Assembly (NCBI GenBank): GCA_030390025.1
Contig: CM059437.1
Coordinates: 4,216,001 to 4,280,000, forward strand
Source of the DNA: Squalus acanthias
Lineage: Eukaryota
Direction of reading: 5' to 3'
DNA length: 64,000 bases
Under the pieces are notes generated by a model. It had not been told where the DNA came from, did not search any database, and saw only the letters and a list, made by a program, of their open reading frames with translations. Positions 6,634 through 58,154 of this stretch are shown here, one piece after another. Both the position numbers and the translations under genes were made by a program. Each line of letters starts with the position of its first letter. Position 1 is the stretch's first letter.

Positions 6634-6849
6634 GAAACTGAATTTGTCTACCGCTTTTTTTTCACTCACCAAACAATAAGAATTTCGACCTAACGCGTCA
6701 GATAAACTTCAGATTCCTGGATTAAAAGCTGTTGGCCTTTTCTTTGTTTGTGTGGAGTTGGAAGCTCTCTCTCGCTCTCTAGCACCAAATTTGATGTTTG
6801 TTCCAAGAGGCACCCCTGCCTCTGTCTCTTTTTTTCGTCAGCCAGTTGT
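6634..6849 (-). pseudogene. HoxB11-like pseudogene, homeobox (exon 2) remnant
   Basis: Acceptor TGCTAACAG (AG at 6851-6850). Ordered blocks: KKR, C, NKHQIW (6802-6785), LESE (6782-6771), NKEK (6748-6737), QL, SRNL (6721-6710), SD, R*VEI (6695-6681), VKKK. These match Hox11 [57 protein letters not shown], with several frameshifts and a CAG>TAG stop. Confidence 0.8.
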
Positions 6850-7319
6850 CTGTTAGCACATAAAATTTGCACAGACAGGCAATAAAGTGTCTGGCTGCTG
6901 TGTACGCTCCCTATACAACGCCTTGAAAAAAAACACTGCTTTTAAATGCTGCCACAGCACAACCGTGGGATTGATATTTTAGCTTCTACCCGCATTAGAA
7001 TGTATAGTCTCTATATATTTTTAGAAATGCTGACATTTTTTTTTCGTTGGCGGATAGAGATTTTAGAAGAACTCTAAAAACAAACAACACCACTGTGAAA
7101 ACAAATCTGTAAATTGTACTTGATCGTGGGTGTTTGGTGTGGAGTTCTCAAAGTTTAAAGCACCATTAATTAATTTTAATTGTAAATATTCTGTATGGGT
7201 AAAAATCCAGGGTTTTAAAATATAGGATTGATTGGAAAAAAAATCAGTGTCTTGTTGGAATTTCGTTGCCTCTGCTCGCGCTCTGGGCTCTTTATGACCG
7301 TATCTGGGGCGACTGGCTG

Positions 7320-7834
7320 CAACTGAGTGAACTTCTCTTGTTATTCCTGTCGCGAAATTGTTTTCCCTCCTGCAGTTTCTAACCTTGAAACGGTTCCAGT
7401 CCTAAACTCTATTCCCTGGACGCATTCCCCTGTGGAACTTGTCGCTCATTCTAGAGCGGATGTTTATTCGAGTGATTGTTTAACGTGTTGGATAGTCGAA
7501 TAAGAATCCAATTCTATTGACTGGTTTCTTGTTCGCTGCAGGCATGCTGTTGGCGAACCTTATAGAAAGCAGTTGAATTTTTTTGGGGGTGGGGGTAAAG
7601 TTTAATTAAATAAAGCTGCATCGCCAACATACATAGACAAGCAGCACCTATTAAAAACGGCACCATCTAAAGTCAGAAGGATCAGTCTATTGCAGTGCAG
7701 GCGTCTCAGTACTTCACGAAACCCCAGGTTAGACCCGGCTTTGGGCAAAATTAAAATTCTTAAAATTCACACGCAATTCCTCTTCATATATGTGCCTAAG
7801 GGTAAGTAAATTACCTCCTCTCGTCTTTCAACAT
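7320..7834 (-). pseudogene. HoxB11-like pseudogene, exon 1 remnant
   Basis: caccATG TTG AAA GAC GAG AGG = MLKDER (HoxA11 MDFDER). 7811-7710 reads IYLPLGTYMKRNCV*ILRILILPKAGSNLGFREV (Hox11 MYLPSCTYYV...FLPQ...SNL...VREV, with the YLP-to-LP spacing preserved). Further ordered blocks in shifting frames: AID/DPS..RW, NRCCL (HRDCL), VGD, YPHP...STAFY (YHHP...SSNFY) and a GNNEEK-like block near 7345. Confidence 0.75.
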
Positions 7835-7837
7835 GGT

Positions 7838-7870
7838 GAACCACATGACGTGCGATGTGATCACGTGATC
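7838..7870 (-). promoter_or_regulatory. E-box/CRE-like cluster immediately upstream of the HoxB11-like ATG
   Basis: Minus strand GATCACGTGATCACATCGCACGTCATGTGG: a CACGTGA palindrome followed by GCACGTCA, a motif pair I recall from Hox11 promoters. Confidence 0.5.
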
Positions 7871-10800
7871 GTACCAAGAATGCAACATTACTTGTACCAT
7901 ACACTTCAGAGGCCAACATTGGTTCAAAGGCGGTGGGAAGTCTGCAGCTTTTTAAATGCATCTTTTATTATTGTGTCTGTTGTGGTGTCGATTTGCAGTG
8001 GTAGCCATCAAGCTGCAGAACACAGATATTTCGTGTGAAAATACTGATGATGATTTCGCCGCTCATCTCTTGGAATTAACAAGTTAAAATGTTGAGTTTT
8101 ATTGTAAGGGCCTGTTGTAGGCGACTGTTTATTTTAATAAACACAATCTTGGCCTACTCCTGCTCCCATTTCTCCTGCTCTTATGTCAGAATCCTGTCTA
8201 TTCGCCAAATAGCTATTTTAAAACATCCCATAATTATTTATTTGACTAACTTGTTTCCCAAACTACCACGCATTTTTTTATTGATCGTAATAATTGATTC
8301 AAAATGTCCTTTCAAGGTGACTTGCGCAATATATCCTCCCAAGGTACAGTAGTTAATTAGTACCAGTCTGCCTGTTTTACAATCATTTTAATTGCAATTC
8401 TATTGAGACGTATTAAATCCAACCAAAAATGAACACACCGTGTTCCAGTCAGAGCATGCAAGTATTGCCCTGTGATTGTCACCGTTCTGCCAATCAAGCA
8501 TGTGGAATGTGGCACAAATCTCGTTATTTGTTTTCTTTTGAAATTGAAGTCAAAACTGCAACAAATTCTTTGGAAAAAGGATTAACCCGAGTAACTTATT
8601 TAAACCTTTCACTCTGTACATTGGTTGTGAAATGATTTTTTTTTACTTTAGGGACTCATTTTATTCCCCGCGGTATAAGAATACAAAATATTGGAGGAAA
8701 TATTACATCATGCTGGGCCGGCCCGCACACATTAGCATCGAGGCTTTCACTGACGCCAGCGCTTTCTCTTCAGAGTTCGTTCATCAATCCATGCAGTTCG
8801 TTGGATCCGAGAAAAATAATTGATAGAAGTACAAAAAGAAACAGAGAAGTTGGTCATTCATTCATCTCTATGTTGATGCTGCAGCACAGTTTTTAAACTG
8901 GCTTTGCAGGGTTTATGGGAGGGTTCGTTTTAGGATCGTGGATTAAACCCAAGCATTGTGAAATGAACAAATATGTTCGATGGCAATCAACATAGGAATA
9001 GCAGGGTACTTAGTGCCAATGAAAGTACTGCATCGCTGCAGGACAATCGTCTTGGAACCTGGCTAAGCGGAGCTGTACAGCAGCTTTGAAAAGAATTCCC
9101 TATCGAAAGCAACCAATAGAAATATTAATTCGTTTTCAATAAGAGTGCTGACCAATGCACAAAATGTTCAGCACTCGGCCAAAGTATAAGACTCTCAGAA
9201 GCGCTGTTCATACACAGTAAGTTTTGTGAGCATTTTAAACTTTTAGCCGATGCTCTGTAGAACGACACTCACCAACATCCAAAGAGATTATTTAACTAGC
9301 CAGCAAATAAACTGCTGCTTTCCCGTCTTGTTTCTCCGCGCACTTGTAGTACCCACTCCGCGAAGACTAATGCTTAGCAGTAAACAACATTAGCCCTCAA
9401 ACGGATAGACGTACCGACCACTTCCCCCTATGTTACTGACACGCAGACATGTTCCTCATTCCAACTTTCTGCTCATAAACTCCTGCCCGAAAGGACGTCT
9501 ACAGACATTCTCGAAATTAAATATCTCAAGCATTTTTTCACCGGCTTACTCTTTAAATTTTTACATATATCTTCCTTTTGCAAAAAAAAAATCTGTAACT
9601 ATTTATAAATAATCCCTTTCGGGATGTCTAACAAAACCGGAAAGTTGGTAACTTTTCTACTTTTAGTGAAACTTTTAAAATTTAAAATATGTTGCAGTTA
9701 CGTACGGTTTGACATTGAGATAGCAAACAGAAGTATTCCACATAAATATACAAACATCAGATTAATTCTAAAATGATAGTATTCGTGCACATATCTCAAT
9801 AAAAACCTTTAGCATGTGGCTTTAGGAATACACTGATTTTTTGTTAATCTAACCATAACACAAGGGACAATATCTGTTTTGCAATATTTTTAATAATAGA
9901 AAATATGAAATTCAAGAGCGAGATTAAGGAGACGGTTTGTCTGGGATAAAAACGGAAGATTCCGGAAAGACACAGCGGGTCAGTTTAATACCGGCGGAGA
10001 CAACGGGCAAGTAAACCGTTGGGAAACACCTGAAAGCCTCGCCGGTTTTACTGTTCACAGGTTGAATGATTTGCTAAGCATTTTAGTGCATATTATTTTA
10101 TTTTAAAATTTCTAACGTTGTACGAATTAAATATTTAAAAACTCAGGCTTTGCATAAATAGAAATAAATAACTTTGAATGCACGAGACAAAACAAGTGAG
10201 TTTACAGCGTTATTTCCAAGGCCGGATTAATGTGACAGGCCGATTTTTGCCTGTTTAACCGTTGCCCAAGTGATTGGATATCAGGCTTTACAAACACACA
10301 AGTCACTTAAGTAACCTGACTCCCGCAAATTTTCATCACCTTTACTTTTGTCGTAATATTGTAGCAGGTATAGAGAGGAAATAGGGAGCATTTCACCAGA
10401 TAAGGTTCCCCCCTCCCCTTAAACGGACTGCAAATTGAACATTAATTATTTTTCCTGTTAATGCACCGCATGATCAGCGTTTAAATATCTAGTCCCACTC
10501 TGCGTGTTTCCGATAGGATCGCATTTTTCAAGTGTCGTTTTACAATGAAGTTCCACAAGTTTTGTATAAAATAAAAACATTTTGTCTATAAAACAAATTG
10601 CAGCGAGTTTTTTTCCCCTTTTAACGCCGATTCCTGTTCTGTAGGCACAATTAGCTACCATCTGATTTTTGATCGTTTTACTCGTTCAGAACAAATGAGT
10701 TGCTTCAACCGCAAACAGATCTCGGGTTGGTGCATCAGGGAAACTGAATCAGGAAACAAAATGATTACAGACTAGTTCCACAATTAATGCAAGATGAACT

Positions 10801-11027
10801 GTTTCTGGCCCAGCCCAAGAAGCATGAAGGAATTGGTCTGAATGGTAAACCAATACATACCGTTTTAAATCCAAGTTTGGAGGAACACGCCGTTCGTAAC
10901 GACCGCTTTCCGTTCAATGTCAAAACGGCACACACAAAATTATCAATGATGGAGAATAAAGAAGGCAAAATTGTTTTAACAAAAATGTAAATCGTTATAA
11001 ATGATTTTCTTTTATTTTTTTAACGAG

Positions 11028-11052
11028 AGGTCAAGGTGAAAAGCTAAGGTCC
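11028..11052 (+). promoter_or_regulatory. Nuclear receptor DR0-like element
   Basis: AGGTCAAGGTGA at 11028-11039, followed by AAGCTAAGGTCC. Confidence 0.4.
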
Positions 11053-12439
11053 AGAGTGCACCGCACCACAAAGGCTCCTCCAAACAGTTAAAAAAAAGAG
11101 GAGGAAGTCAATTAGAAAATAATGATTAGGTGACGCTAATATTGCGATTTAAAGTCCTGAAAACGGTAGAAAGGTAAAACTGAGGGAGGTAAGAAGTCGC
11201 ACGGTTCTGGGAAAGAAGGATCCGCAGTGGGAACCTGTGAATGAGTGTTGAGGATGCAGGGAGGGGGAATAGTGTATGGAACCACATACTTGGAGCTTAG
11301 AAGGAACAAGCCCGAGAAGTTCATAGCTGCAATGGTCATAGCAGAGAGACAGACAGATAAAGACCGAACGGGTATGATGAATACATTACTTACTCTTAAT
11401 GGATTTACATACTGGAGGCAACTTAGGAGAAAAGAGCCGATGTGATTCATTTTACACCGTACAGGGTTGAACTTGTACCTGCAATAACAACATCAAGAAG
11501 TGGAAGGCGTCAGCATTCACGCAATGTGTGTGCATAATATTAACTCGTGCAGTGCTCGAGTTTCGAGTTCCCCTTTTTCATTGGTTGCAAAAGTCTCATT
11601 TTACACCTTAAAAGGTTCCTACACTATTTCCGGATTTCAGTTGCAATCGGGACAAAGTCACATAACCATAAATTGTCAATATTTCTGTGTATTTTCGCAA
11701 TGAGTTTGTATCATAGCAACAGCTCTGTAGTTTGTGACACTTTCACTTTTCCTATACACAGAGACATGCACAATATATGTTTCCACACAAATATAATCTC
11801 TCTCTCACATACGTACACCGCAGCCTTTACTACACACGCATTCTCGCTCTCGCACAAAAGCTGCAGAGGGCAAAATAATTACAATATTAAACGGATATTT
11901 GCGAGAAATATTCAATAGGGAATATAACACTGCCCGGCCATCCAATTCTTGTAACATTGCCGATGACAGAGGAGTTTGTAGTTAGTACGGCGGAGCTGCT
12001 TGCCAAGTTAAAGGGACTTTAACACTAACAAATTATTTGGGACTGATGGGATCGAACCTGTGGATTTTGACGCCAACTAGAGAGGAAATTTGCGTCGCAC
12101 TGGCTGTCGTCATGAGCGAATCACTGGGCACTGCTGAGGTTTTGTCGGACTGAAAGCAGCATATCTATTGCCTAGGTTTTAAAAGGAGAACATATCTGAT
12201 CAAGGTAACGACAAACTCATTAGCCTAAAATCAATAATAGCTAAAATCATGGAAACTATTCTAATGGAAAGGCTGGAGGTCTATCTGCATAGAACAGCAG
12301 TAAAAATAAAACCACACTCACGTTTATGTAGCATCTTATCACCTGGAGATGTCTCAAAGCACTTCACACAGTGATTTATATGGAAGTGCAGTGACTTGTT
12401 ATTTACACGAATAATTTAATAACAATGATCGGGGGCATA

Positions 12440-12872
12440 AAGGGTTAACTTAAGGGGACAGGTTGCATATACATAGCTTGTATTCTCTTGAGTTTAGACG
12501 ATTGCGGGGTGTTCTAATCAAGGTATTTAAAATGATTGGGGGATTCGATAGCGTTGATAAATTATCTCCTCCGGTAGGGGACAAGAGGACACAATCCTAA
12601 AATTAGAGCTAGGTCATTTAGCAGTGAAATCAGGAAGCATTTTTTCACACAAAGTGTAGTGGAAATTGGAACTCTCTCCCCCAAAAGGTTGTGGATGCTG
12701 GGGGTCAACCGAAATTTTCAAGACAGGGATCGATAGGTTTTTCTTGGGTAAGGGTATTAGGGGAAATGGAACGAAGGCGGGTAAATTGAGTTAAGGTACA
12801 GATCAGCCATGATCTAATTTGAATGTCGGAACAAGCTCGATGGGCTGAACGGCCTGCTACTGTCGCTATGTA
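12440..12872 (+). mobile_element. CR1 LINE 3' fragment
   Basis: Homologous to 555-995. It lies within older CR1 debris spanning ~12180-14390. Confidence 0.8.
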
Positions 12873-13859
12873 GAAAGAGCCAGCATTGAGTTAGGAGGTG
12901 GAGAATTTTACAAACCCTTTGGAATCATTTGAAGATGTGACAGACAAAATAGTGAGATTCTAGGATATTATTCATTTGGAACGTTCAGAACTTAAACTAA
13001 AAGATACAAGGATCCAGGGTAGAACTGAATAAGATGTTGGTTATGAAATAGGAAACCGGATACTGGGTTGAACTGGGGGAAATTAGAGCTGTCCCACTAG
13101 GGTTAATGCTGAGATCTCTGTGTTTCCCCCGGTCTACACTAATTACCTGGATATCAAAAATGATCAGGTTTGCTGAAATAGATTTGCAGAAATATTAAAA
13201 TCTGTTATACAGCCGAGCAGACAAATGCGAAATTACCTTGATAAATGTAACGTACATATCATAGGTATACAATGTTTGCAACCGAACTATCAGAACGAGA
13301 AATAGGCAATCTTTATACAACCACCTTTGTGTTAATGTGGAAAGGTTTCTGCTGAAATGCAAAATCAATAGTATTGGTGGCCCAAGATCTGAGTCTCCTT
13401 CTAATATGAGGTTTCAGACACATTCTGCTGTGGACTGACTCCAGTATAACTTCATTTTGAATAGGTTCGTGTATAAACCTGCGCATGACGCAATGTACAG
13501 TCTCACAGTGTGTATTGAATCCCCAATACAAAGCCAGAACAGATTAGTTACAACTACAAAGTAAGTAAAACTCTTGTCTTGCACATTTGTATTACACTTC
13601 GTTTTACAATGCGGCTACAGAGCTTCCGAATGCGTAATCTGCGCATGCCTGTGCACAATCTATATGTATATGCCTGTGTCATAACGTGTAATTCCATTTT
13701 CTGTGTATGCGTGGGCTGTCTAAATCAGTTTCATTATAACTTCAGTCTATACAACTGATTCAAACTGAGACATGTACCAGTCTCAGACCATATATGTAGT
13801 GTAATTGCAGCCTTAGAAATTGACCTGAGAGTGATAGTAAATTTATCACTCTCGAAGTC

Positions 13860-14390
13860 TAGACAGTATGGCAAAGCAATGTAATAAAGAGAATGACTGC
13901 TGGGATATATACTCAGAAGAAAGGCTTTAGAAGTTATGCGGAGTCCTTACAATGTACAGGTCAGACCCCACTTGGAGTATAGTGTTCTGATCTGGTCACC
14001 GCGTCACAAAAGCATCTACATGCAATGGAGACGGTGCAGAACAGAGCAACATAAACAACCCGAAGCATAAAGAGGATGAGCTGTGAGAGAAGACTGGAGA
14101 AACTCAAGTTCTATAATCTAGAACGAAGTTAAAGGGAGACCTCATGGAGGTATAAAATATATGAAGTGGTATCGATTAAGTAAACTAGGGACAGTACTTA
14201 CCTTACAATCCAGGAAATGAAACCAGAGGATATGCATTGCAATTTAATTTTTTGAAAAAATTAAAACAGATATTTGGAAGAACAGCTTTACTCAAAGAGT
14301 GATACATGTTTGCATGTATGGAGACTAATCTATTGGCTGCTCTAATGGGAAGGATTAGTTTCGATGTTTTTCTCTCGCCCTTGACTTACA
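13860..14390 (+). mobile_element. Old degraded CR1 fragment
   Basis: GTCAGACCCCACTTGGAGTATAGTGTTCTGATCTGGTCACC (VRPHLEYSVLIWSP) and AGGGAGACCTCATGGAGGT (GDLMEV). Confidence 0.7.
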
Positions 14391-15966
14391 TTGTGCTCTT
14401 ATATCCTCCACTCTGCCTCACACAGAGACATACATGCCTCACACAGAGACATACAAACATCTAGACTCTTCACACACACGTAAACCTAAACCAACAGCGT
14501 TCAAATGTGATCAAATGTTATTTTTACACCGGCAGAGGCTGCTATAAAGATGTTTCCTAAATTAGTACAAACAGCCGATTCTATAAGAGTGTACTCTTGT
14601 CATGGTGTTATTCCTGTAATCAGTTGCGGCACCGCTTTCGCATGAAATGACCTCGAACTGGATCTAACTACAAGCGTTTTCTAAACTGGTGGAGTTATTT
14701 TGAAACTCGTTGGTGTCTGATTGAATCGTTGATTTTGAATGACAATATCCGAGGTATTTCCTATTTCCTTTCCAGCCGTTCTAAGGTCGGGTTTCGCCTC
14801 TCGTGAGCGTTTTGCTGAAACACGGCAGTGATAAACCCAAACGGCAGGAGGCCTGATTCTCTCATACAAATACACCGCACCTTCAAATTCACAGCCGTCC
14901 ACACAAGTCCAAGCTAAGCTCCTCGAGTTTTAATGTTTAAGAAATATTGAACTAAAGTTATCTTTGTACCAGAGAGACTTTGAAGATGCTACAGCCGCAG
15001 TGAAATGGAGTTGGTGTTTTCAGCGTGTATTTTATGTTTAGAGTTCCAGAAGATGAAATATTGGATGAACAGATTGGCCTGCATGCCCTAGTAGTTTAGT
15101 TGTGAAACAGCAACTGCAAAAATACAGAACATTCTCACAGATTTCTGTTAATCTCAAGGTGCGGAATTCCAGCATCACACTTCCCAGGTAGAGAAACCTC
15201 CAAGTGTGAGATTCAGCCTTGACAGGTTAGAAATATTTTATTTTAGTTAAAATTCTCGAACGTCAGTCGTGCTTATATCACAGCACGAATCTTTAAAACT
15301 CCTTAAATTTGAATCCGAATATCGACCTATTCTCCATGGAACTGCAAGTTCGAAACAGGTTGCTGTTTGGGTACAAGTGTAAGTTCATTACCCGTATATA
15401 AAACGTATGATATATGTCTATATGATAAATTTGCAATAAGTGTACTTGTATTACCAGTGCAGAAATGTTGTGAATAATTGTCCTGCTTCCTCTAGAGTTA
15501 ATCGCCTGATTGTTTTTAAACAGTGGATTGTTGAAATATAATTATCAAAGTATTGTTCATTATGGAGCTGCTGAGCCTATTTTCATAAATGCACTAACAT
15601 TAAAATGATGACGAGTGAGGTATGTTTTATTTGCATTGATCTGATTATTGTTCATGTCTACGTGATCTTTGCTTCCGCAGATAAAGCACATAGTGCTCAA
15701 TCAATATAAGCAAACCTGCAGTACCTGCGAATTTGTTTTACGAATTTTCAGAACAGAACCGATAAACAATGATCAATTATGATGTTATCAATTTTGGGGA
15801 TTGGACGAAGGGACGAAGGGAGAAGAGGAGAGGAGAAGAGCAGGGTGCCCCATGACATTAAAATTAACAATTATAATGGCGCTGTGGAAATACTCTGAAT
15901 CTGCACCTCACTCTGATCAATAATGTCATAAAGTAATTGCTGGTCCCATGTTATGAAGTTCATTGA

Positions 15967-16002
15967 ACGGCAGAGGGCGCGCGGGTGTCGCCACCTGCAG
16001 AG
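15967..16002. promoter_or_regulatory. Paired CTCF-like sites in opposite orientations
   Basis: ACGGCAGAGGGCGC (+) immediately followed by TCGCCACCTGCAG (CTGCAGGTGGCGA on the minus strand). Confidence 0.5.
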
Positions 16003-17479
16003 TGCGAGACAGGGGGTATCGGTATGAAACCTACAGTGTTGCTCAGTTGAAAAATTGCTATACATTTCCGACCCTAAAATTCAGATCATATAATATAAAT
16101 GTAATTTAAAATCGAGCAGTTTAATACAACTGTGATAAAAACGTTTCCCTCCATTACAATAGTAATTATAATAGACGCCACTTCAAAAATATATTTCATT
16201 GGGTGTCAAGCGTTTTTGGACCTCCTGAAGTTGTGGAAGGCGCTATATAAATGCAAATTCTTTCTTTCCGTCTTTCCTTAATGAAACTGCACATATTTTC
16301 AGCTACATTTATTCATAATCGCGTCTGTAAATCAAGGCTCGAAGCCTCAAAATAATAGCCCTGGTGTTGAAATATTAACCTGAAATATACTTTTCCTAAA
16401 CAGAACCAATTGTCTACAATTTAAACAGGACGTGGTTTGGGAAATATGTTTGCAACCATTGAGCCGTGCATAAACTTCATCTGTTATTCATAAAACCTAC
16501 GAAAATTGTGTTTTTCTGATAAGGTTTAGAGTTTACAGGTGGCTACCCTTAAAATAATACCCCTTCTCCAATTACATCGACTTTGTATCAGCTGTATGTG
16601 AATCGCTAGCTGAGTACCAGCCTTGGAGGCTGGTTATTCAGGATTTTTGCGCATGCAGATGTATCCAGTGGAGGCCCAGACCTTATTTGGACTCCTCAGT
16701 GGCGGGATCATTAACTTCTTGTAGGGAAAGTGAAGTGGGCCAATTAAGGGGCCAACAATTTTCCTTTCAAAAGCTATCTTTGATGATTACCAAAATTATA
16801 TTCTCACAGGTTAATTTCTCATCGTGTCAGTTGCCTCCTTCTTTCAAATCTCCCCAAGACCTCACCCAGCCCTATCTGGTCTTTGTCCAGCCCGAGACCC
16901 TAGTTTGTTTTCTCCGGTCCTCTCACTCTGGCCTCTTTTGGTTTCTTGTCCTTCTACTCCATCACTGTGACAGGTGTTAGCCCCACACTGAAACTCCCTA
17001 CCTCAATTCCTCCACTTTTCTAATCTTCTCGTCGTCAAAAGCCTCCTCAAGACGTTTTTCAACCATATTTTTTGTCACCTCTTCTGTGACCCCTGGAGGT
17101 CAGTTTCTTCGTTGTCCGGTGCCTTCAGGTATTTACTGCATTAAAACGTTATAGAACCGCCAATTGCTGTTTGGGAGTGGGGGGGGGGGGGGCGGGATTG
17201 GGTCGATTTAATCTGTTCAAATCTAATTATGCACACTTTAATCTGTACAAAATTGCTCCCTATAATTCCGGTAAAGTAGTGAGAAATTCCTTACAAATAT
17301 TTATTTAATTGGGAAGGTCTCCAAGGCAACCCACTGAGCATTTGGATTGCAGGAGAGATTCTAAAAGCACACAACACGTGTGACAAACATTTATACAAAT
17401 GCACTCCCGGAAAGAGCGTCAAATGAAGAGTATAAGTATTTATCTAACTACTCAATGATAACAAACATATCACAGTAAG

Positions 17480-36515: not shown

Positions 36516-36524
36516 ATTTATTTA

Positions 36525-46289: not shown

Positions 46290-47045
46290 AACATACGAAC
46301 AATGACGGACTGGAAAAGACCCTTTGGTCCATCCAGCCTGTCCCGCATAATTGCGTTGCCTTGTGTATCACAACATATACACTCTCCACTGCCTCCCCGC
46401 CTCCCCCCCCCCCCCGCCCCCCCCAACCATGTGATCACCTGGGAGAGGCAAAAAACAAATAAAAACCCAGGTCAATTTGAGGGTGGGAAATCTGGGAACT
46501 TCCTCTCCATCCCTCTTAGACAATTGAAATTAGTCCTGGAGATCACTCTGGTCCTTTAATTCTATACACTACCTACGTTTTATAAGAGGTGATCTCCGCC
46601 CTAGCCAGAAACAGGTCCAGGACTCCCATGAAGGAATTCAGTAAATCGGGTGCACCGCATGAGCTGGTTGCCTATTTCAAAGGTCCTCTACTCACTGAGA
46701 AAGGATCACCTCCTGACATCTAACCTAGGTCTGGCATTATGCCACTTAAAATTCCGACCCCTGGTCCTCCCTAACCTATTGAAACAATCTGCCGACTGGA
46801 ACACAATCTATTCCCTTCATCATCTTAGAAACCTCGATCAGATCACCTCTAAGTCTATGATTCTCTAGTGCAGAGACCGAGCTCTTTTAGCCTCTATTGA
46901 TAACTAAGATGTTTTAAACTGGGAATTAGTCTAATGGCCCTCCTCTGCGCCCTCAATATCACCCACCATGTGAGGGGACCAAAACTGGACACAGTATTCA
47001 AACTGAGGCTTGACCAAGGTATTGTACAAGGACAAAATGGTATGT
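46290..47045 (-). mobile_element. CR1 3' fragment
   Basis: LYNTLVKPQFEYCVQFWSP and QRRAIRLIPSLKHLSY. Confidence 0.8.
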
Positions 47046-47065
47046 TTATATATATACATACATAT

Positions 47066-47537
47066 AAAGAAAGGAAGACTTGCATTTATATAGTGCCTTT
47101 CACGACCACCGGACATCCCAAAGCACTTTACAGCCAATGAAGTACTTTTTGAAGTGTTGTCACTGTTGTAATGTAGGAAACGCGGCAGCCAATTTGTGCA
47201 CAGCAAGCTCCCACAAACAGCAATGTGATAATGGCCAGATAATCTGTTTTAGTGATTTTGATTGAGGGATAAAATATTGGCCAGGACACCACGGATAACT
47301 CCCCTGCTCTTCCTCAAAATAGTGCCATGGGATCTTTCACGTCCACCTGAGAGAGCAGATGGGGCCCTCAGTTTAACGTCTCATCCAAAAGACGGCACCT
47401 CCGATAGTGCAGCACTCCCTCAGCACTGCACTGGAGTGTCAGCCTAGATTTTGGTGCTCAAGTCTCTGGAGTGGGACTTGAACCCACAACCTTCTAATTC
47501 AGAGGTGAGAGTGCTACCAACTGAGCCATGGCTGACA
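47066..47537 (-). mobile_element. Full-length Deu-domain tRNA SINE (SacSINE1-like)
   Basis: A box TGGCTCAGTTGG, B box GGTTCAAGTCC, Deu core and an L2-like tail. Flanked by TA-rich target sequence on both sides. Confidence 0.9.
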
Positions 47538-47880
47538 CTATATATATAACACATATATATAGAAAAAATCTATGTTGTTTCCCTTCTTTAGATATATGTG
47601 CAAGGCATAGTGCAAAATGGAAAAACATGGAATAAAAATGGTATATTGCCTTACAGGTCTTGATACATCGCCTCTAAAAGAGACGCCTCCCCACCTCGAC
47701 TGGAATTGGGGAGCTACACTTCCCTTTCGCATTCCAAAGTTAAAATCGCTTAAGGCAACGTCACGGTCGCAACACTCTAATATGTTAAATGCAGGGTCTG
47801 GAATGCCACTTGCCGCAATTTCATTACAAAGGCATCCAATGCGCACAGGAAATGCCTTTCGTGAAACTGTTCGACGAAAG

Positions 47881-48555
47881 AACATAGCATAAGATATAGG
47901 AGCAGGAGTCGGCCATTCGGCCCCTCGAGCCTGCTCCGCCATTCAATAAGATCATTGCTGATCTTCTACCTCATCTCCACCCTCCTGCACTATCCCCCTA
48001 TCCCTTGATTCCCTTAATATCCAAAAATCTATCAATCTCTGTCTTGAATATACTCAAGGACTGAGCCTCCACAGCCCTCTGGGGTAGAGAATTCCAAAGA
48101 TTCACCACCCTCTGAGTGAAGAAATTCCTCCTCATCTTGGTCCTAAATGGCCGACCCCTTATTCTGAGACTATGACCCCTGGTTCTAGACTCCCCAGCCA
48201 GGGGAAACATCCTCCCTGCATCTACCCTGTCAAGCCCTGTAAGAATGTTGTATGTTTCAATGAGATCACCTCTCATTCTTCTAAACTCTAGAGAATATAG
48301 GCCTAGTCTACTCAATCTCTCCTCATAGGACAATCCCCCCCCCTCCCCCCCATCCCAGGAATCAGTCTGGCGAACCTTCGTTGCACTCCCTCTATGGCAA
48401 GTATATCCTTCCTTAGGTAAGGAGACCAAAATTGTACACAATACTCCAGGTGTGGTCTCACCAGGGCCCTATATAATTGCAGTAAGATGTCTTTACTTTT
48501 ATCTTCAAATCCTCTTGTAATAAAGGCCAACATACCATTTGCTTTCTCAATAAGG
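47881..48555 (-). mobile_element. Relatively young CR1 3' fragment
   Basis: ORFs LYRALVRPHLEYCVQFWSP and LSYEERLSRLGLYSLEFRRMRGDLIETY...FFTQRVVNLWNSLP, with the CR1 tail. Confidence 0.92.
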
Positions 48556-50496
48556 AAACTGTACATGTTAAAAAAAACAAGCCATACTTAGAAAGATAGA
48601 TAGACAGTATAGATGGATAGGTTGATTGATGATAGACAGACAGTCAGCTAGATAGATAGGTATGGAGCATTTTAACACAGAAGTTCTTACATTTAACACG
48701 AGTTAACTCTGCCGAATTTTCCATACTTTTAGAAAATGGGCTTTGTTAAAATCTTTGAAGAAATACGCTTCTCTTCAATCGTTAGTAAAAGCAGAAGTTT
48801 TCTATTTGCATTCAACCGGATTGATATTTATTAACGATCCCGTTTCTAAATTCGACCATTTAGTTCAGTAATGAAATTTGCCCTAGATTTGGCGTTACGG
48901 AGTCACTGCGTCTTAATTTCCCTGGTGTTCTTCTGCGCTTTTTAACCTGCGGTTACATCAATGGCCCTCAGACCTTCACCTACATTCCCTATAATAATTC
49001 GATTTTAAATTTAAAAAGAGAACTAATCGTTTCATGTTTAGAAAAATGTTCTTCAGAAGTGCTCATCTTTCAGGAACTTGTAATTGCGCCTTTTCTTTGC
49101 AAGTTTTAATTTGGGCTGGTTTATCTGAAATGGGAGCTGAATTCCAATGTTATCTTGCTAAGATTGAGAGAGTGCGAAAACAGCATTGACCAAATATAAA
49201 GTGGCATTGCGTGTAAATTGGGCGCCAACACCTCACACTTCCAAAATTGTGTAAATATGCTTTCTGTTCAGGCTTTCAGTCTAGCTAGCTAATCTTTATA
49301 TATGTAAGCATGAACCTAGCCATCTATAGTCTTAACAGAAAACTAAGTTTAAAATAATTTAGCTAAACTTTCGCTGCAGTCTATATTATATATTCCGAAT
49401 ATTTATTTTATAATATTGACTTATCATCAACATGCACTGACCAGTTGAAAGTGTGATATATGATTTTTGAGATCCATGCATCAATCACAGAATGTGAGAT
49501 CTACCCACCGCCCCCCCCCCCATTCTACACTGCTTATATCAAAATAGTTTCGATTTTGTAACATTATCTCGCATCCATTGTTTTCACAGCGGTTTGATTT
49601 TTCTTCTCAGAATATATTTGCACCGCAATAATTAGTTCTTATTGTTGCTGAAACTGATATCGTATTCGCTCCATTAAAATATATTTTCTGTTTATGTCTT
49701 ATGCCTAGGAGAAGTGTCATATGTTTCATGTGAGCAATGAATGATTACTCGGCTTTTATATCTTACCCTTATCAAACATCACATCGAAATGTATATGTAC
49801 AGTGGATAACGCTGCTTATAATACTACGATTAGATAAGTGTTCCATTTATCTCATGAACTCACGCTTTATTTCAATCGAGATTGAATATGTTGCTCACAA
49901 ATCGTTTTCCAACGAGTTAGTCATTGTCAAGACAGTGTATACATTTTAGCCTTTCTTTGACTTGCACGCACATTCACAGAAAACGAATACGCAAAATATT
50001 AAATTGCATCAGAACTGAAATATAGTGCTGATAATTTGATATTTTGTATTTTCAGTGCAGTCACATAAACTAGTTAGAAATATCAGACTGAATTATATTA
50101 ATATGTGTTAGCCGTTTGATTAATATAGCATTAATACAGCACAATATACAACAATAATAAGCCAGTAACAAAATCGGAGCAATCTGTAAACGTTGAATCA
50201 GAAAAATACAAAATTCAGGATATAAGAACTACTGAAATTGGCAGAACATTTCTAAATATTATATCGACATTAACCGATATAAAAAGCCGGCTCACAGATC
50301 AACTGTTAGACATGGAAAGGCGTATGCTATTTTGCGTTATATTCAATGACTAAAATATAAATTTTAATCAGAATACAGAATTGCCTTTTCAGAAAGTTAA
50401 CCAAACGTTCTTTATTCTAATTGTTTTTTTTAAGCAAAAGGTACATCTAACAAACAAGGACTTCGTATCATATTTAAAAAATGTTCTGCCCAAGCT

Positions 50497-50662
50497 CATT
50501 TAAAATATATTTTCAAAGATAGGGAATCTGAAATTAAAGTATTGATTTATTTTGCCTTTGGTAATCGCAACGCTTAAACATGTGAATAAACTAATGCACT
50601 AATTGTAACTGAGCGTCTGACACCAAGATCAGCTGCTGGGTATATATTGTTCTGTATCAAAC
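50497..50662 (-). pseudogene. HoxB12-like pseudogene, homeobox (exon 2) remnant
   Basis: Acceptor TTTGACAG|GTTTG (AG at 50664-50663). 50644-50570 reads YTQQLILVSDAQLQLVH*FIHMFKR versus Hox12 [24 protein letters not shown], with an in-frame TAG at 50593-50591 (from GAG). Weaker traces of helices 2-3 follow, including TTT GAA AAT (FEN for FQN) at 50517-50509. Confidence 0.6.
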
Positions 50663-51187
50663 CTGTCAAACTAGGCGAAAGTGCTAAGTTACATTTACAA
50701 TTAACCCGTGATCCACTGATCTTATTGACCTACACGTTTAAGTGGTTCCAATCAAAATACAATATAGTTACTGGATGTGTTTAGGTTATATTCATTGTGT
50801 TGGTGAAACTTTACTTTTGTTTTATTCCCTGTGGGCGAAGAGCAGAAACAGGCAATTTTGAACGAGTGAAGAATATGTGGGGATAATTTTCTGAAATTCA
50901 AATGGGAGGGAGACAATCGCCGATACGAACTGTATAATCAATTAATGAAATAAAAACACCGTTTGAATCAGTTTCCGGTCAAGATACATTTCCCATTCGT
51001 GTTAGTATGGTGAATATAGTTAAGAATTTAATTAAACCGCACTTACACACGATACCGTTTGTATTTGTTTTAAAACCAACCAACTTAAATTAAACTGAAT
51101 TAAGGGCGGATTTTGTCCTCGGTGTATCTTCGTGAACTAATAGCGTCTTTCTTTGCAATTTCTTATCAATTATGTTTCTTTTTGTCC

Positions 51188-51310
51188 TGGGGGTGAATCC
51201 AGAAGTACCCGGCCAGAAGGCTGTGAGATAGAAAAGCTAAAAGTGCTACAGCCATTTGTGAAAACAACAGGGACAAAGAAATCTCTGAAAGCCAAGACTT
51301 GCTTTTGGAC
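51188..51310 (-). pseudogene. HoxB12-like pseudogene, exon 1 remnant
   Basis: 51283-51188 reads DFFVPVVFTNGCSTFSFSISQPSGRVLLDSPP. It aligns without gaps to the Hox12 N-terminus (HoxC12 [32 protein letters not shown]; HoxD12 [32 protein letters not shown]; recalled). Many mismatches are single-base codon changes. No start codon is retained at the expected position. Confidence 0.65.
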
Positions 51311-51909
51311 TTTTAAGGTACAGCTCGCGCGCGAGAGCTGAAAATGCCCGCGGGAAATTACATTCGTAATTGCAAACTTACACATTCTCTCTATCAAAAC
51401 TGCCAAACGGTGACTAGCCCATTCCATTAGATTGCATTTTAGCAAGGTCCCTTAGATTAAAAACATCCGAAGTCCTTGTCGCGCTTGTTTTTGCACCAGA
51501 ATGTTGCTTTGGCCCACAGAATCCAATCAAAACATTTTTTTTTTTAAAAAGGTCAGACCCTCAGCTTGCCTGAAGCTTCTTATCGATTACAGAGCAGGCG
51601 GTCAATTGCAACAGGCTACAATGCGCCCGTTACTGACCTGTTTGTACCCAAAGGAATGGGCAGAAACTGCAAAGTCTCCTAAAGCCTCTCCCTGTCCTTT
51701 ATTCATTCAGATACAGCAAAGCAAGTTATGACCTTATGAGTTGAAAGTTTTGTTTTATCCTCCCCCTCATTAATTTCAGAACTTATCTTAAAACGTGCAT
51801 CTTATCATCCCATCGCCTTGGCAGCGAGCACTTACTGTATTAACCGGGGAACTTTATGTTCTTTTCTGAGACCAGACCGTTGTCGGGGCCGCGGCGCTCC
51901 GTCTGATTT

Positions 51910-51948
51910 TGACCTTGCCTTTCAAGTTCAACTGCAAGGTCAGGGCTA
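51910..51948. promoter_or_regulatory. Dense nuclear-receptor half-site cluster upstream of the HoxB12-like remnant
   Basis: TGACCTTGCCTT, TCAAGTTCA and AGGTCAGGGCTA within 40 bp, in TE-free, CpG-retaining sequence. Confidence 0.45.
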
Positions 51949-54616
51949 GACACAAAGGAACGGCTAGCCTGAACTGCAAGCAGTCCTTAACTTAATTACA
52001 TTCAATGCAATCGAACTTGGTTCCCCCCCCCCCATCCCCCCCAAAAGAAAAATTACAAATAAGAAGCAGCACTTCGCCGTTTTGCCTTTTCCCTCTTCGA
52101 ATTATTTCTTTATTTCTGACTAATGGGAAATTTTACGTTTGGTTACGCGCAGAAAACCGAGAGACAGAAAAAAAAAACCTCAATTCGCCGCTGGCGCACT
52201 TGAACTTGAATCGCGCCTGATGTTTCCGAACGCTCACCAGGAAAATCATTATTTTTGCGCCGAGGATTAGAACTAATCCTTTTGAGTATGTGTTAATCGC
52301 CTGGATGCAGTTTTGACTTCCTTAATGTTTTAATAAAATGTGCACAGTCTAAACGGCGAACTCAGAAAGCTATTATTTGGTTGGCTGTTTGGCGTCATGT
52401 GACGGTTACAAAGATTTGAAATTGCTTTGGTGATTTTAAGTTCATTATTTTCATGCTTCAGTTAGATTCCTTCACACACCTACATTTTTTAAATAAATGA
52501 ACTTTTTTATAATCCCACTGAATTCGGGGCGACCTATTAAAATTGCAAAAAGTCACATGGAAGTGAGCTATGGTTAACTGGCCGGGTACATTATAAATAA
52601 CATATTTGTGTTTATTGTGCGATTTTTTTTACTAAAGGACAGCTGCTACATTTATTAAATATGAATTGTGTGATTGTTTTGACGGGCCCTCAATCCCAAT
52701 CCCTCTCTAATACTTGTCTGTTGCTTCCGATTTGTTTTCCGGGCGTAAATCAAAGATAAGGCGTTGTAGAATATTAACGTCCCATTGTGCAGCTTTATGT
52801 TAAATTCCTAATTCTTAGCTTCAATGGGATAACTTTATTGATTTTCATTCTATCCCTGTCTCTATCTACCTATCTATACATCCACACATATTGTCAAACA
52901 TTCTGCAAAGTACGCTGTCCACTTTCACAGAGCAGGACGATACACAGGAATCTCACACAAATGGACAGCATTGCTAAAGGGATCTAGTCAAAAGAACTAT
53001 AAAAACAACACACAGGCGCACCATAGTGTGTGTATTTACCTGAGATTTATGTATATAAGAGCCTAAATCAGAATTCAATAAGTAGTTACATATATTGCTT
53101 GGAATCTGTTTTTATCATAAACATCTGTGGATTACAATACCTGTGTGAGGCATGTGTGCACAAATAACAGGTATATACAGTAGAATATATTTATACTGTG
53201 TGTGTATATATATATGTATATCCTACTATATATATAATAGCAATATATATTGCATGTGTAAGTGTTTGAAAGATTGATCCATAGATTAAAAAGACAGTTT
53301 CTGAAACAGAATTAAATAAGAAGTATTAGTATGTATGAGATTACTTTTAGCATTTAATGGGACAATTTGAAACCTTTTAGGGCGGAAAAGCTACTTTCGC
53401 ATATTTAAAAATAGTATTGTACTCCCTCTGACTGATTTGTGCATCTAGTAGATTGTAATATATAAAACTTACAGTGTATGAATAAAGGTTATCGATATCT
53501 ATTTATCTGGCAATACAGTATATTCAGTTCTACTGACCGCTATGAATGAACTAAAATGCTAAACGGTAGCAAACTTACCATTTCAAGTTCTATACCAACC
53601 AATAGTTCCAGATTAGTATTTGTATTTATATAAAGACTGATCTAAATTGGCCAAGTTAAATATAATTAGGATTCTACTCGGTTCTTAATATTGCTGTGCG
53701 TGCACATGCACAAATACACTTAATAAACTCTAATGTGAACACATTCTTGGAAATGTCCTGATAAAAACAAATTGTTTTCAAGTACAGATTGTGTTCTGTG
53801 CAAGCTCGGTAATCTTGTTATCACAATAATTGTATAATCACGCCTAGTTTATACACAGCCAGTAATGGGGCAGTCACTTCTGCTCGTGACACAGTTAATG
53901 CTGTAATATAATAGTCAACCTTGGCATATATACATTCTGTAATGGTACAGTCACTCCGGTTACAGTGAGACAGCCATTGCTGTTTATAGACATAGTCAGT
54001 ACGGATCAATCAATTCTGTTGTATGTCGGCTTGCTTTTGTGCAGTTTCTTTAGACTGCCCTGACCTATTGGTTAAACATACCCCATTGTATTTATGATGA
54101 TTATTAACTCAATTGGAAACGTCTCTGCTGTTAGATAAGCTCCAAAAATACCTTTTGCCTTCAACGTTTTGCATTCATTTCATCTTGCTGCATTGTGCTA
54201 AACTTCCATTGAATTTACTGCAGCAGCCATGAGCCCGTGTGTGAGCAGGGTTTCAATGCTGGTAAAAGTATAATTCAAATTCAAGCGCAAAATAATCAGG
54301 ACTTTACGTCTCAGTGTTTCGATTGGCACGAATTAAATGCAATGACCACAAATACTCCCTGCAGTTTCCGGCCTCTCAATTGATTATTCATTTATCTACC
54401 AAGATGCTTTAGCTTAAAGGTTTCGCAGTAGCTCTAAATTGCTTCCGATACGCAAAGTGATTTTTCTGATTTTTTAAAATTTCTGATGTGCTAAAATTTG
54501 AACTATCTGCAATAATTTTGCAACGTAAGCATTTGATATAATAGTGTTGCCGGCTCCACGTGCAGCAGGCGATGCGAATAATCGTACCGATTTGTCTAAT
54601 GTAACGCACAATGATA

Positions 54617-54681
54617 TATGTGTGTGTGTGTGTGTCTGTCTGTGTGTGTCTGTCCGTACATGTGTGTGTGTGTGTGTGTGT
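54617..54681. repeat. (TG)n microsatellite, interrupted
   Basis: Visible dinucleotide run. Confidence 0.85.
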
Positions 54682-54946
54682 ATACAGGGCGCGTGTTTGT
54701 GTGTGGGGAGGGGAAATTACCGTAGCAATGGTTCTTCAGTCAATTGGCTGGGCAATATTTTCAAATATCAAAAGAGAACATAAGGCGGAAAGCGCTGCAG
54801 CCAAACAATTATTTGTTTAATGAATCGGGATTAAATTTTTCCTTCATTTTGGACTATTTCTGTGCGAGCTCGGTACAAACTCAGCCTACATGTTTAAACA
54901 AAGGCTGGCCGTCCAAGCGGCAGTGCTTGTGTTATGGAACCATTAG

Positions 54947-54960
54947 CCAGAAGATGGCGC
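54947..54960 (+). promoter_or_regulatory. CTCF/YY1-like site 3' of HoxB13
   Basis: CCAGAAGATGGCGC is a CTCF core with one mismatch and contains the YY1 motif AAGATGGCG. Confidence 0.5.
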
Positions 54961-55033
54961 ACTTGCTCTACTCATGCTGGCCCTGCCCAGATCAGAGCAC
55001 CAAAAAAGCGTTCGATTATTCATGAGCTGCTAG

Positions 55034-55082
55034 AAGTCAAGATCACTGACGAAGTCGCACGTGACTGCCAAGGTCAAGGTCA
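55034..55082 (+). promoter_or_regulatory. Perfect DR0 (NR6A1/GCNF-type), second DR0-like site and E-box
   Basis: AAGTCAAGATCA (55034-55045), CACGTGAC (55058-55065), AGGTCAAGGTCA (55071-55082). Confidence 0.55.
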
Positions 55083-55402
55083 AAGGCTTATCAATGCGAT
55101 TGGATTTGAGTATGCAAAGGTGGGAGCTGCTTGTTACTTGCTCACAAAGTCACCCACTCACCCCCACCCGATTCATACACCCCAAGGAACACACCCCAAC
55201 ATAAACAAATCCACACCCTATTGCCAGCAGGGTTGCACAAACATATATCCTTACACCAACAGGCACATATGCACCCCTATATCAATAAAAGTACATACGT
55301 GATCCTCTAACCTGCGTTTTGCATTTACCTTATGCCATTAAACCCATAGTCCGCGGTGAAGTAGTTAAGTGCCAGTTATTTTGTAGAAGGCGACAGAAAA
55401 AC

Positions 55403-55408
55403 TTTATT
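55403..55408 (-). other. Candidate HoxB13 polyadenylation signal
   Basis: AATAAA on the minus strand about 1.4 kb after the stop codon, followed by a GT/T-rich stretch. Another AATAAA at ~55598-55603 is an alternative. Confidence 0.35.
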
Positions 55409-56796
55409 TAACCAAAAATATTTTTTGATTGAATGTCAATTTCAGTACATAATTCACGTGTTCGTGTTTTAAATACTAATAGTCAATGATATGGAAATGC
55501 GAATGAAGTGAGCGGCCGCGTTCTCCTCTGTAAATTGATGTAATGCTAGATTATGTTAACATGGAGCCAAAAGGGGGGGAAAGTCTGTAGCAGAGTGTTT
55601 ATTGGTCTTAAATTGTTGCATTAACCAGACACTATTAAAGGTGTGAAATATAGAAGGGATCAGCTCAATTGTGTGATAGTGCCCGGCTTCAATGAGAAGT
55701 TTCCCAAACTTTGTCCATTCGTTCATTTCCTTCTTTTCACAAAAACAACAAATTAGCTCGGAATACGTGCAGCAATTATTTCACATAATTTTGTTTATCA
55801 TATTTAAATAAATGTATGAATTTACTATTAAAGTCGAAGCAAATCATTCACTGATTTTAAACACAATTAAAATAGTTGCAGCTAAATCCTTCCAGAGACT
55901 ACTTTGTATCGAGGTTAGGCTTTGCCCAGCTGCCAATTTTTCAAAGCTTATTTTCTGATGAAATCACAATATTAAATACAAAATTAAATCATTGTTTGTA
56001 AACACAAATGGCTAGGAGTACCTGTTTATCTTTTTTAAATCAACCTTGCATAGTTTAAAGCAATTATACTTTTTGAAAAGATAAACCAGCAAATATTTCG
56101 TACATGTTCACGTTTACTCAAGAACTGGTCGCCATCCCTTTCCAGTAAAATTTAAAACCAGATCAGTAACATCGCCGCTTCATGTGTTTCTCTCTCTATA
56201 TATATTCCAAATATTATCTTATGAGATATGTTATTTGCCGAAACTTCCATGGTTAATATCATTAAATGGATATGGAATGTATGAACATTCCTCGCAAAAA
56301 TATGGTTCAACAAAATTAGTGTAGTCATTAAAACTTTTAATCCTTTTTTTTATTATTAATATTTTCCCTCAACCGGTTTTGCTTAAAAACAGCGTTTAGG
56401 CGGTTTTACTGCTGCCGTGCCGATAATCAACGGTTTTAATGCATAACCCAAACAAAACATTAAAAAATAGCATCTACACCAATAGGACATACGTTGCATA
56501 CCTCCACAAACACAAAACTGATAATAAACAGTGATGTCGGTATGGTTACAGCATCGTTATAATTATATTTACATTCTGACCATGTATCTTAGTCCATTTT
56601 TAATGGTATTCCATAACAAATCCTCCATTACAGTACTACAAAAAGAGGAGAGGACATGTTAGCATTCTGCAGGCAAGACTCCATGAAAGAAGTGTGCACT
56701 TAAACCCCGGTCGGTCACAATCGTCTCTCGCTTGGTTGTGATAAATTTCCCCGATTGAACAGTTTCATTTATCTTTTTTTTTTAAAATAATAATAA

Positions 56797-57044
56797 TTAA
56801 GGTGTGTTGGTTTTTACTTTCGCAATGACTTTCTTTTCCTTGACTCTCCTGTTTTGAAACCAGATGGTGATCTGCCGTTCGCTCAGGTTCGTAGCCGCCG
56901 AGATCTTCCTTCTCTTGTCTTTCGTGATGAATTTATTTGTTGCATATTCCCTCTCCAGTTCTTTGAGTTGGACTTTGGTATAAGGGATCCTCTTCTTCCT
57001 TCCGCGCCGAAAGGAACTACCATCCTGTTGGTGCGCTGCAACAT
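56797..57044 (-). CDS. hoxb13: HoxB13 exon 2 (homeodomain)
   Basis: [81 protein letters not shown] and AKVK point to B13 rather than A13/C13/D13. Acceptor CAGCAG|AT follows a pyrimidine-rich tract. The joined CDS is 676+248=924 nt, in frame. Confidence 0.95.
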
Positions 57045-57478
57045 CTGCTGTGTGTAGCCAGACACACCCCGCCAAAAAAAACACAAGACAAGCACATCAG
57101 AAAAATGTAACATTGGAAAATAATGTTGAAAAACGAATTAAACAACACGCTCATAATCAATAATTTTCAGTATCCAAAAGGAATACATTTAAATTAACTG
57201 ATGTATCAGACACTACTGGTTAATGCTGTATAATATTCCAAGGATTATAACTAAATCACAACACTAAATTTCGAATGATATTCCAACTGAGCTCCTTGCA
57301 TCGGGAGCATAAAATAAAATTGTACAATTTTCAATCCTGTTCTAAATTTCGGCATATTGTCAGAAATAAATCATTATCTTTCAGTTCCATAAGGCCATAA
57401 TGTTTCCAATATAATTAAACATGCAATTATTTTTAGATGCTTATCCTTCTAGGAAGGAATGCAAAGGTCACTTGTTAC

Positions 57479-58154
57479 CTGCAAGTGTGGATTTCCAGAG
57501 GTGTCCCGGCTGTGCTTGTTCCTTAGAACAGTACATCTGGCTGTTCCAGCCATTGAGGGCCCAGGGCTGGTAGCCGTCCATAGGTAACAAGGCTTCGTGC
57601 CTCGGCTCTCCCGCGCCACTGATAGTTTGCACTACAGAAACATCTAGATAACTTGGCATTGGTTGGTAGGGACTCGCATAGCCGTGGTAAAAGGCGAATT
57701 CCTTCGGCCGCCCTGGGTATTCATCGGTGGGGACAGGACTGTCCATGTACTTGTCTCCTGGGTAACTAGATAGGGCGGCAGGCTGGGTGCAAGGCTTGAT
57801 GGAACTTCGCCCCATTCGACAGGAATAGTAGCCGCTGCCGAAATATCCGTATGGTAAAGGGGCGGCGGTGGAGGCCTGGGGCACCGGGCATGGGGTGCAT
57901 TGCTTGCCGGGCTCCACCACCCCAGAGCCGGAGACGTCGACTGTTGAGTAGCCAGAGCCGTGAACCAAAGGTGAAGGATGAGCCCCGAGCGCAGAGTGAG
58001 CCATCAAATTCCTGCACTGATTCGCAGAGAAATTCCCAGCACCAACAAATCCTTCCATTGCCCCGCTATTCTTATTAATCTCATCCGAGTTGTTTTCATA
58101 CAGGAACATTACAGTGTCGACCCAGCGCGGTTTGAGAAGCAGTGACACTGTCAT
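57479..58154 (-). CDS. hoxb13: HoxB13 exon 1 (676 nt coding, phase-1 intron follows)
   Basis: [24 protein letters not shown]...[14 protein letters not shown]...KEFAFY...YLDVSVV...EPRHE...[19 protein letters not shown]...LWKS contains the Hox13 N-terminal motifs. Donor GCAG|GTAACA, with GT at 57478-57477. Confidence 0.96.

Follow-up and report, generated by a model that had tools for sequence, protein, structure and literature searches.

A decayed homeobox, here called psiHoxB11, lies ~50 kb 3′ of HoxB13 and on the same strand, as expected of HoxB11, in a window of 64,000 nt from the shark Squalus acanthias (GenBank assembly GCA_030390025.1, contig CM059437.1, positions 4,216,001 to 4,280,000 of the forward strand). 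Repeats crowd the spacer that separates the remnant from HoxB13 and thin out around both. To our knowledge, HoxB11 is absent from all jawed vertebrates examined. The explanation we favor, and hold to be fairly probable, is that HoxB11 decayed in place, that insertions were purged near its remnant and near HoxB13, and that repeats filled the relaxed spacer.

Detection and group identity of the homeobox remnant

A nucleotide profile of 32 group-11 homeodomains, run with a deterministic aligner, scored 52.6 bits at positions 6830-6654, with 26.3 bits at the next site outside HoxB13. The score was reached by 0/60 shuffled strands (maximum 33.9) and 0/25 codon-shuffled decoy profiles (maximum 31.5). 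nhmmer returned the same site (6817-6682; E 7.7e-4, 14.2 bits), with 30 shuffled windows scoring at most 6.2 bits. Over 128 kb (both strands), psiHoxB11 was the best match outside HoxB13 for mixed profiles and for those of groups 9, 10 and 11, and leaving out group 11 did not change this; the group-13 profile alone ranked it only 137 and 47 of 426 tiles (16.4 bits). The trace is thus a real one, and only nucleotide-level profiles had the power to detect it. As to its condition, 61 of 75 fixed sites are kept (19% changed), 11 indels fall within ~177 nt and every frame carries stops. With 11 indels, the coding sequence itself is without constraint, and MAFFT could not align the proposed remnants with HoxB13 in register.

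By extended profiles, the remnant scored 53.7 with group 11, 41.8 with group 9 (a loosely assigned set) and 38.3 with group 10, and it appears to fit group 11 better than groups 9, 10 and 13, the comparison being made without group 12. Reference proteins for groups 9, 10 and 11 were the named rows of searches with 6 and 76 matches (2 and 5 unnamed rows dropped), none of the named rows being a group-12 protein, and a further 150 unnamed representatives were left out of the reference sets. Under a neutral alignment, the remnant shows the group-11 state at seven of nine diagnostic sites. Log-odds along the remnant (50:50 profile), negative toward group 10 and positive toward group 11, run from -14.2 in the N-terminal arm and -2.8 in helix 1 to +27.0 in helix 2 and +4.9 in helix 3. 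Strand, position and group preference together suggest orthology to the lost HoxB11.

The window covers the 5′-terminal part of an elasmobranch HoxB cluster, since exon 1 of HoxB13 is, among the matches listed, closest to shark HoxB13 and not to HoxA13-like sequence; the rest is probably the HoxB13-to-HoxB10 spacer. Among the matches listed (the best 120 of 430, the 95 named ones forming the group-13 reference set), the closest named proteins were the HoxB13 of the zebra and basking sharks (93% identity); stingray and elephant shark HoxB13 reached 88% and 86%, and a ray HoxA13-like protein 64%. HoxB13 is an intact minus-strand gene of 307 aa plus stop, and its presence, as claimed in the original prediction, is confirmed by an open two-exon frame with HoxA13_N and Homeodomain matches (Table 1). 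AATAAA signals at 56354, 55603 and 55408 (minus strand), 0.4-1.4 kb past its stop, are candidate transcript ends. HoxB10 would lie beyond position 1, because no intact group-10 homeobox was found across the window; Rfam matches and tRNAs in the window both numbered zero.

Uneven repeat load along the window

Repeat cover was compared in four masked segments (1-5200, 5201-12200, 12201-48600 and 48601-64000). It amounted to 20.5, 0, 27.7 and 0.4% by self-blastn, to 49.3, 0, 37.7 and 0.4% with a translated self-search added, and to 51.7, 2.6, 44.4 and 1.0% with hand-picked family members and nhmmer, the last mask giving one false match on five shuffled windows across eight families. All three masks were built from the window itself and miss single-copy non-coding elements throughout. 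The dense repeats originally described at ~12.2-48.6 kb are thus borne out by each mask. The accompanying description of the flanks as almost free of repeats stands at 2.6 and 1.0%, but has to accommodate a remnant at 9930-10113 and, 1.8-2.7 kb upstream of HoxB13, a pair of short repeat tails (59998-60091 and 60786-60849). The second tail mimics a homeobox in protein-level scans. A protein-level match suggestive of psiHoxB14 (60922-60728) was discarded because of its overlap with a repeat remnant and its background score at the DNA level, in a comparison that included no group-14 reference.

Random placement of 32 repeat clusters seldom produced a repeat-free run as long as the one of 11.4 kb that includes HoxB13 (Table 1). 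At the gap rate of 0.93 blocks per kb, the island of ~7 kb around psiHoxB11 holds one repeat block where 6.5 are expected (Poisson P 0.011), and 48.6-56.7 kb holds none where 7.6 are expected (P 5e-4). The latter stretch runs on into HoxB13 without a break and may be just the 3′ domain of that gene. Within the gap, the largest repeat-poor islands are 30.4-36.1, 37.0-39.8 and 14.3-16.1 kb.

CpG retention was compared as well. The observed/expected (o/e) ratio of CpG is 0.78 in the psiHoxB11 island (confidence interval 0.70-0.85) and 0.81 in 48.6-56.7 kb (0.70-0.93); gap DNA outside repeats has 0.64 (0.59-0.70), and repeats have 0.45. The psiHoxB11 island, with boundaries set post hoc, is therefore both insertion-depleted and CpG-retaining, and it may be regulatory DNA.

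From 7850 to 51040, a distance of 43.2 kb, recognised repeats make up 16.3 kb, with a mask library limited to the window, so that repeat invasion is demonstrated for a minimum share, and not the whole, of the expansion. Growth of the gap by transposable elements, as originally proposed, agrees with the concentration of repeats there and is covered to that extent. The further proposal that expansion took place mostly between two dead genes has one proven end (psiHoxB11), and the side toward HoxB10 is equally invaded (52%).

Table 1. Features of the window, in order of position
Feature	Position	Strand	Evidence and remarks
Repeat-dense DNA beyond psiHoxB11, toward HoxB10	1..5175		51.7% masked; densest part; Pfam RVT_1 E 9.8e-9 in 3280-4518
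Repeat-depleted, CpG-retaining island around psiHoxB11	5176..12312		Repeat cover 2.6%, with an old remnant at 9930-10113
psiHoxB11 exon 2 remnant, decayed group-11-like homeobox	6654..6853	-	Nucleotide profile and nhmmer; group-10-like N-terminal arm at ~6853-6825
Candidate psiHoxB11 exon 1 and promoter-like E-boxes	7250..7870	-	Profiles at background; CACGTG-type boxes at 7842-7868
Repeat-invaded spacer	12313..48570		44.4% masked, 34 blocks; copies pairwise 69-93% identical
CTCF-like motif	15967..15980	+	One mismatch; lead only
Two CTCF-like motifs (22917, 23037)	22917..23050	+	One mismatch per motif; lead only
Penelope-like element inserted in a SINE-like copy	23998..24935	+	GIY-YIG E 2.2e-4, 21.9 bits, just below the 22.6 cut-off
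5′-truncated LINE with reverse transcriptase	27060..28690	+	Pfam RVT_1 E 1e-8 and 1.2e-20
AT-rich island in the spacer, nearly free of repeats	30427..36081		5.6 kb; CpG o/e 0.68; P 0.03
Repeat-free run of 11.4 kb with HoxB13 and its 3′ flank	48571..59997		P = 0.0026
Proposed psiHoxB12	51050..52400	-	At background with group-9, -10, -11, -13 and mixed profiles; repeat-free; CpG-rich
CTCF-like motif 3′ of HoxB13	54947..54960	+	Exact match to the consensus used; lead only
HoxB13 exon 2, homeobox and stop	56797..57044	-	Pfam Homeodomain E 1.4e-19; spliced frame open; best PDB match HoxB13
HoxB13 exon 1	57479..58154	-	Pfam HoxA13_N E 3.9e-46; GT donor at 57478; intact

Among the repeats, Pfam matched 5 of 22 frames, with one more giving a weak unrelated match. 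Reverse transcriptase was found at 27.1-28.2, 45.5-46.1 and 3.3-4.5 kb, and at 24.1-24.5 kb there is a GIY-YIG domain close to the threshold. Of the element classes named originally, long interspersed nuclear elements (LINEs), short interspersed nuclear elements (SINEs) and Penelope, the first is substantiated by RVT_1 and the last approached by GIY-YIG. The finer labels (CR1, L2 and RTE-type LINEs, and the SINE label) are presumed from resemblance, RVT_1 and GIY-YIG alone having been demonstrated. In the Penelope-like element, the GIY-YIG frame is flanked by 144-nt inverted termini (98% complementary) and the ends carry a 14-nt duplication. This young copy sits inside a SINE-like copy, which makes it a layered insertion. 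Most copies of the youngest families are 83-93% identical; being less decayed than the homeobox remnant, with its changed fixed sites and indels, they most likely postdate the death of HoxB11.

Several smaller features accompany these repeats. The SINE-like host of the Penelope-like element abuts a LINE 3′ fragment, and short copies of the Penelope-like termini occur at 18037, 19176 and 25906 and, much decayed, at 9930-10113. A 33-nt unit repeated 19 times (21172-21797; 93% alike) resembles part of the SINE-like family, i.e. a minisatellite derived from a repeat. Degenerate tandem arrays of 16-nt and 20-nt units occupy 17500-18280 and 35769-35934. An inverted pair of ~100 nt (31300-31399 and 32143-32251; 85-89% complementary, 750 nt apart), which has no further copy in the window, is perhaps a non-autonomous transposon.

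Short motifs were noted as well. A scan for CTCF-like sites, using a consensus pattern and no matrix, gave 8 matches against 5.9 expected; with the pattern altered after this first result, it gave 4 against 1.0 expected, a number reached by 1 of 100 shuffles. All four are plus-strand sites left uncovered by the repeat mask, three in the gap and one 3′ of HoxB13. TGACCTTG boxes, which we take to resemble nuclear-receptor half sites, occur at 51910-51942, 55082, 61521 and 61883; five of the six are in repeat-free zones around HoxB13, two of them facing each other at 51.9 kb. CACGTG or CACATGAC boxes were seen at 7842-7868, 52401-52394, 58297-58291 and 55058-55065, including places just upstream of HoxB13 and of the proposed starts of psiHoxB11 and psiHoxB12. 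These come without wider promoter similarity, the likeness among the three promoter regions ranking at background (203-232 of 364).

Probable decay in place and competing explanations

Under the favored explanation, HoxB11 would have died in place long ago, its coding sequence then being free to decay, and its homeobox would persist as a trace because shark DNA changes slowly. For the epaulette shark, a rate of 7e-10 per site per generation is given (PMC10587355), at which 0.2 changes per site take ~3e8 generations; the rate cannot date the loss and shows only why a trace lasts. Once the genes of the interval were dead, retrotransposons would have accumulated over a long period, some of them into earlier copies, while being excluded from the HoxB13 domain and from the 7 kb surrounding the former HoxB11 gene. 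Selection would most likely have removed those insertions that broke leftover cis-regulatory or boundary DNA in the clean zones.

Several results weigh against this account. At the protein level, Pfam recognised no Hox family in any of 15 read-through frames of the two proposed pseudogenes, and a PDB search with the psiHoxB11 homeobox candidate returned no homeodomain. A frameshift-aware scan found neither psiHoxB11 nor psiHoxB12 with a group-13 profile and, with a group-11 profile, scored psiHoxB11 at 53.6, within the shuffle maxima of 42.4-54.5; nhmmer at a lower-entropy setting missed the site. The supposed exon 1 of psiHoxB11 stayed at background: group-11 blocks ranked 22-105 of 142 tiles at ~7.25-7.85 kb, with references that are mostly teleost and reptile paralogues, and group-10 exon-1 blocks upstream of the remnant ranked 52-98 of 142. 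A group-10-based alignment lets five of nine diagnostic sites favor group 10, so that the identity of the remnant is partly alignment-dependent, and the N-terminal arm looks group-10-like. As to the clean zones, the island boundaries used in the Poisson tests were set post hoc, and the clean island at 30.4-36.1 kb yielded no homeobox trace. In the invaded 1-5.2 kb, DNA outside repeats likewise has a CpG o/e of 0.78, so that CpG alone is no marker of protected zones, and none of the four CTCF-like motifs falls in the psiHoxB11 island.

Three competing explanations are compatible with parts of the favored one. The original prediction had arranged HoxB13, psiHoxB12 and psiHoxB11 colinearly, with both pseudogene neighborhoods constrained in their own right, a model that we regard as rather unlikely in full. 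Its psiHoxB11 is real, and 51-52.4 kb is on the expected side, at a gene-like distance from HoxB13, free of repeats and rich in CpG (o/e 0.91, measured over 48.6-52.5 kb). However, the two candidate spots (51.05-51.33 and 51.85-51.92 kb), homeobox-like to the eye, ranked 9-366 of 426 tiles over 12 local profile settings and 10-262 of 424 over 10 full-length settings, their registers differ from profile to profile, and the best score in 48.6-56.7 kb was equalled by 32 of 200 local shuffles. Neither Pfam, which was empty for 51400-52500, nor PDB gave a homeodomain match there. Profiles without group 11 still placed psiHoxB11 at rank 3-4 and the psiHoxB12 candidates at 9-310, and the clean zone that would mark psiHoxB12 runs on into HoxB13. 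In the model's favor, the full-length group-11 profile put one candidate at rank 10-11 of 424, and the scans used cross-group profiles (9, 10, 11, 13 and mixed, none from group 12), whose limited power is illustrated by the low ranks of psiHoxB11 itself with group 13 alone. On these scans, psiHoxB12 is best described as not shown, as distinct from absent, and the ~43 kb between psiHoxB12 and psiHoxB11 stands only if psiHoxB12 is at 51 kb.

A second explanation, unlikely in our judgement, takes the remnant for a mosaic of HoxB10 and HoxB11, its 5′ part being of group 10 and its core of group 11, either through a patch converted from HoxB10 or as a hybrid gene formed by unequal crossing-over. 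In the remnant, an acceptor-like CTAACAG is followed by Asn-Trp-Leu-Thr, and the arm Trp is present in 9/9 group-10 references as opposed to 1/66 group-11 references. The arm score was equalled at 5 of 20000 random sites, a profile joining a group-10 arm to a group-11 core scored 63.7 against 53.7, and the log-odds swing from the arm to helix 2 in the same sense. Against this, the likeness was spotted post hoc and is based on ~12 nt, the group-10 references number just eight and are all teleost, and the matching group-10 exon 1 was not found upstream at the ranks given above. HoxB11 itself may have had such an arm; conversion, a hybrid gene, a native arm of this kind or chance may each account for it.

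A third explanation, which we consider improbable, attributes the clean zones to insertion bias or chance and not to regulatory selection, Polycomb-bound, unmethylated germ-line chromatin being a poor target. High CpG o/e in both flanks would fit, as would the further clean islands inside the gap, the modest P value of the psiHoxB11 island taken alone, and the heavily decayed homeobox, which speaks against base-level constraint there. However, the equally CpG-rich 1-5.2 kb is 52% repeat, so that CpG-rich DNA here is open to insertion, and the 11.4 kb clean run is improbable by chance.

That the remnant instead stems from a duplicate of HoxB10 since decayed, or from a homeobox that came in from another cluster, is very unlikely: the group-10-like arm, the missing exon 1, a HoxB10 outside the window (its order relative to the remnant being unseen) and the highest score with HoxD11 references (54.2; A11 46.1, C11 44.5) would agree with it, but in the core group 11 leads group 10 by 15 bits, strand and position are as expected for HoxB11, and a HoxB11 reference cannot exist, so that some other cluster must score best.

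Comparison with other Hox clusters and implications

The pseudogenes psiHoxA14 and psiHoxB14 stand at the 5′ end of their clusters and not inside the gap between HoxB13 and HoxB10. Both are present in the elephant shark and are, like psiHoxB11, old Hox pseudogenes in a slowly evolving cartilaginous fish, one of them in the B cluster; remnants of HoxB11 or HoxB12 are absent from the list in the available part of that review (PMC3707753). Closer parallels are psiHoxD12 of a caecilian and psiHoxD13 of the coelacanth, beside which repeats gather (PMC3091776; PMC4470032). In each case, a posterior Hox pseudogene with frameshifts and stops remains in place next to an enlarged, repeat-bearing interval; those genes, however, are alive in relatives, whereas here the homeobox alone is detectable.

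In the mouse, HoxB11 is missing from the cluster, and the Hoxb9-Hoxb13 spacer is long, repeat-enriched and gene-free on the 3′ side of HoxB13; the authors note that its CTCF sites have the spacing one would expect had genes been deleted and their sites retained (10.1101/2024.07.20.604409). The shark window shares the long, repeat-rich and gene-free interval 3′ of HoxB13. The available text on the mouse reports no gene remnant, and CTCF binding and insulation are experimental there, compared with four motif matches here. CTCF patterns are described as common to jawed vertebrates (PMC5504073). Uneven, repeat-driven growth of posterior Hox intervals is likewise seen in lungfish, with 11 Mb between hoxb10 and hoxb13 (PMC7875771), and in a newt, where Hoxd11-d13 spans 1.5 Mb (PMC12506533); these intervals are far larger, tied to giant genomes, and described in the available text without use of a dead-gene landmark. 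The HoxA clusters of skate (2.3% repeats) and horn shark (1.1%; PMC2746220) match the clean parts here (1-2.6%) but are clean throughout, in contrast to the 44% repeat in our spacer. In the available part of a ray genome preprint, HoxB repeats are measured from Hox10 onward only (10.1101/2025.06.08.657570), and that of PMC5054437 holds no pseudogene passage.

The original view of the gap 3′ of HoxB13 as a known exception to repeat exclusion agrees with published accounts of the HoxB10-HoxB13 gap and of DNA beside dead Hox genes (lungfish, mouse, caecilian and coelacanth). The repeat pattern is hence already known and alone would be expected. The HoxB11 trace, as an in-place Hox pseudogene, is new so far as our literature search shows. 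That search, mostly of titles and abstract starts, found no HoxB11 or HoxB12 remnant described; key shark Hox papers were outside its scope, and an earlier mention is possible.

HoxB is the sole cluster with a large hole before its last gene, and in the mouse this hole times Hoxb13 and sets tail length, although the authors could only suppose that genes had formerly been in it (10.1101/2024.07.20.604409). The HoxB11 trace would mean that at least one gene of the hole died in place, and it fixes the position of that gene. This allows two questions to be addressed: what non-coding DNA survives the death of a Hox gene, and at what time HoxB11 was lost. A bolder combination, in which psiHoxB12 and psiHoxB11 are colinear fossils, the trace is a HoxB10/HoxB11 hybrid recording how the gene died, and the clean islands with the CTCF sites correspond to an ancestral state of the Hoxb13 insulator known from the mouse, seems to us quite improbable. 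If colinear fossils and surviving sites were nevertheless to hold, the spacer would have arisen by decay in place and not by deletion, and the fossils would serve as landmarks for pairing each surviving site with its dead gene. With the shark, skate and chimaera genomes that already exist, the origin of the HoxB hole becomes testable.

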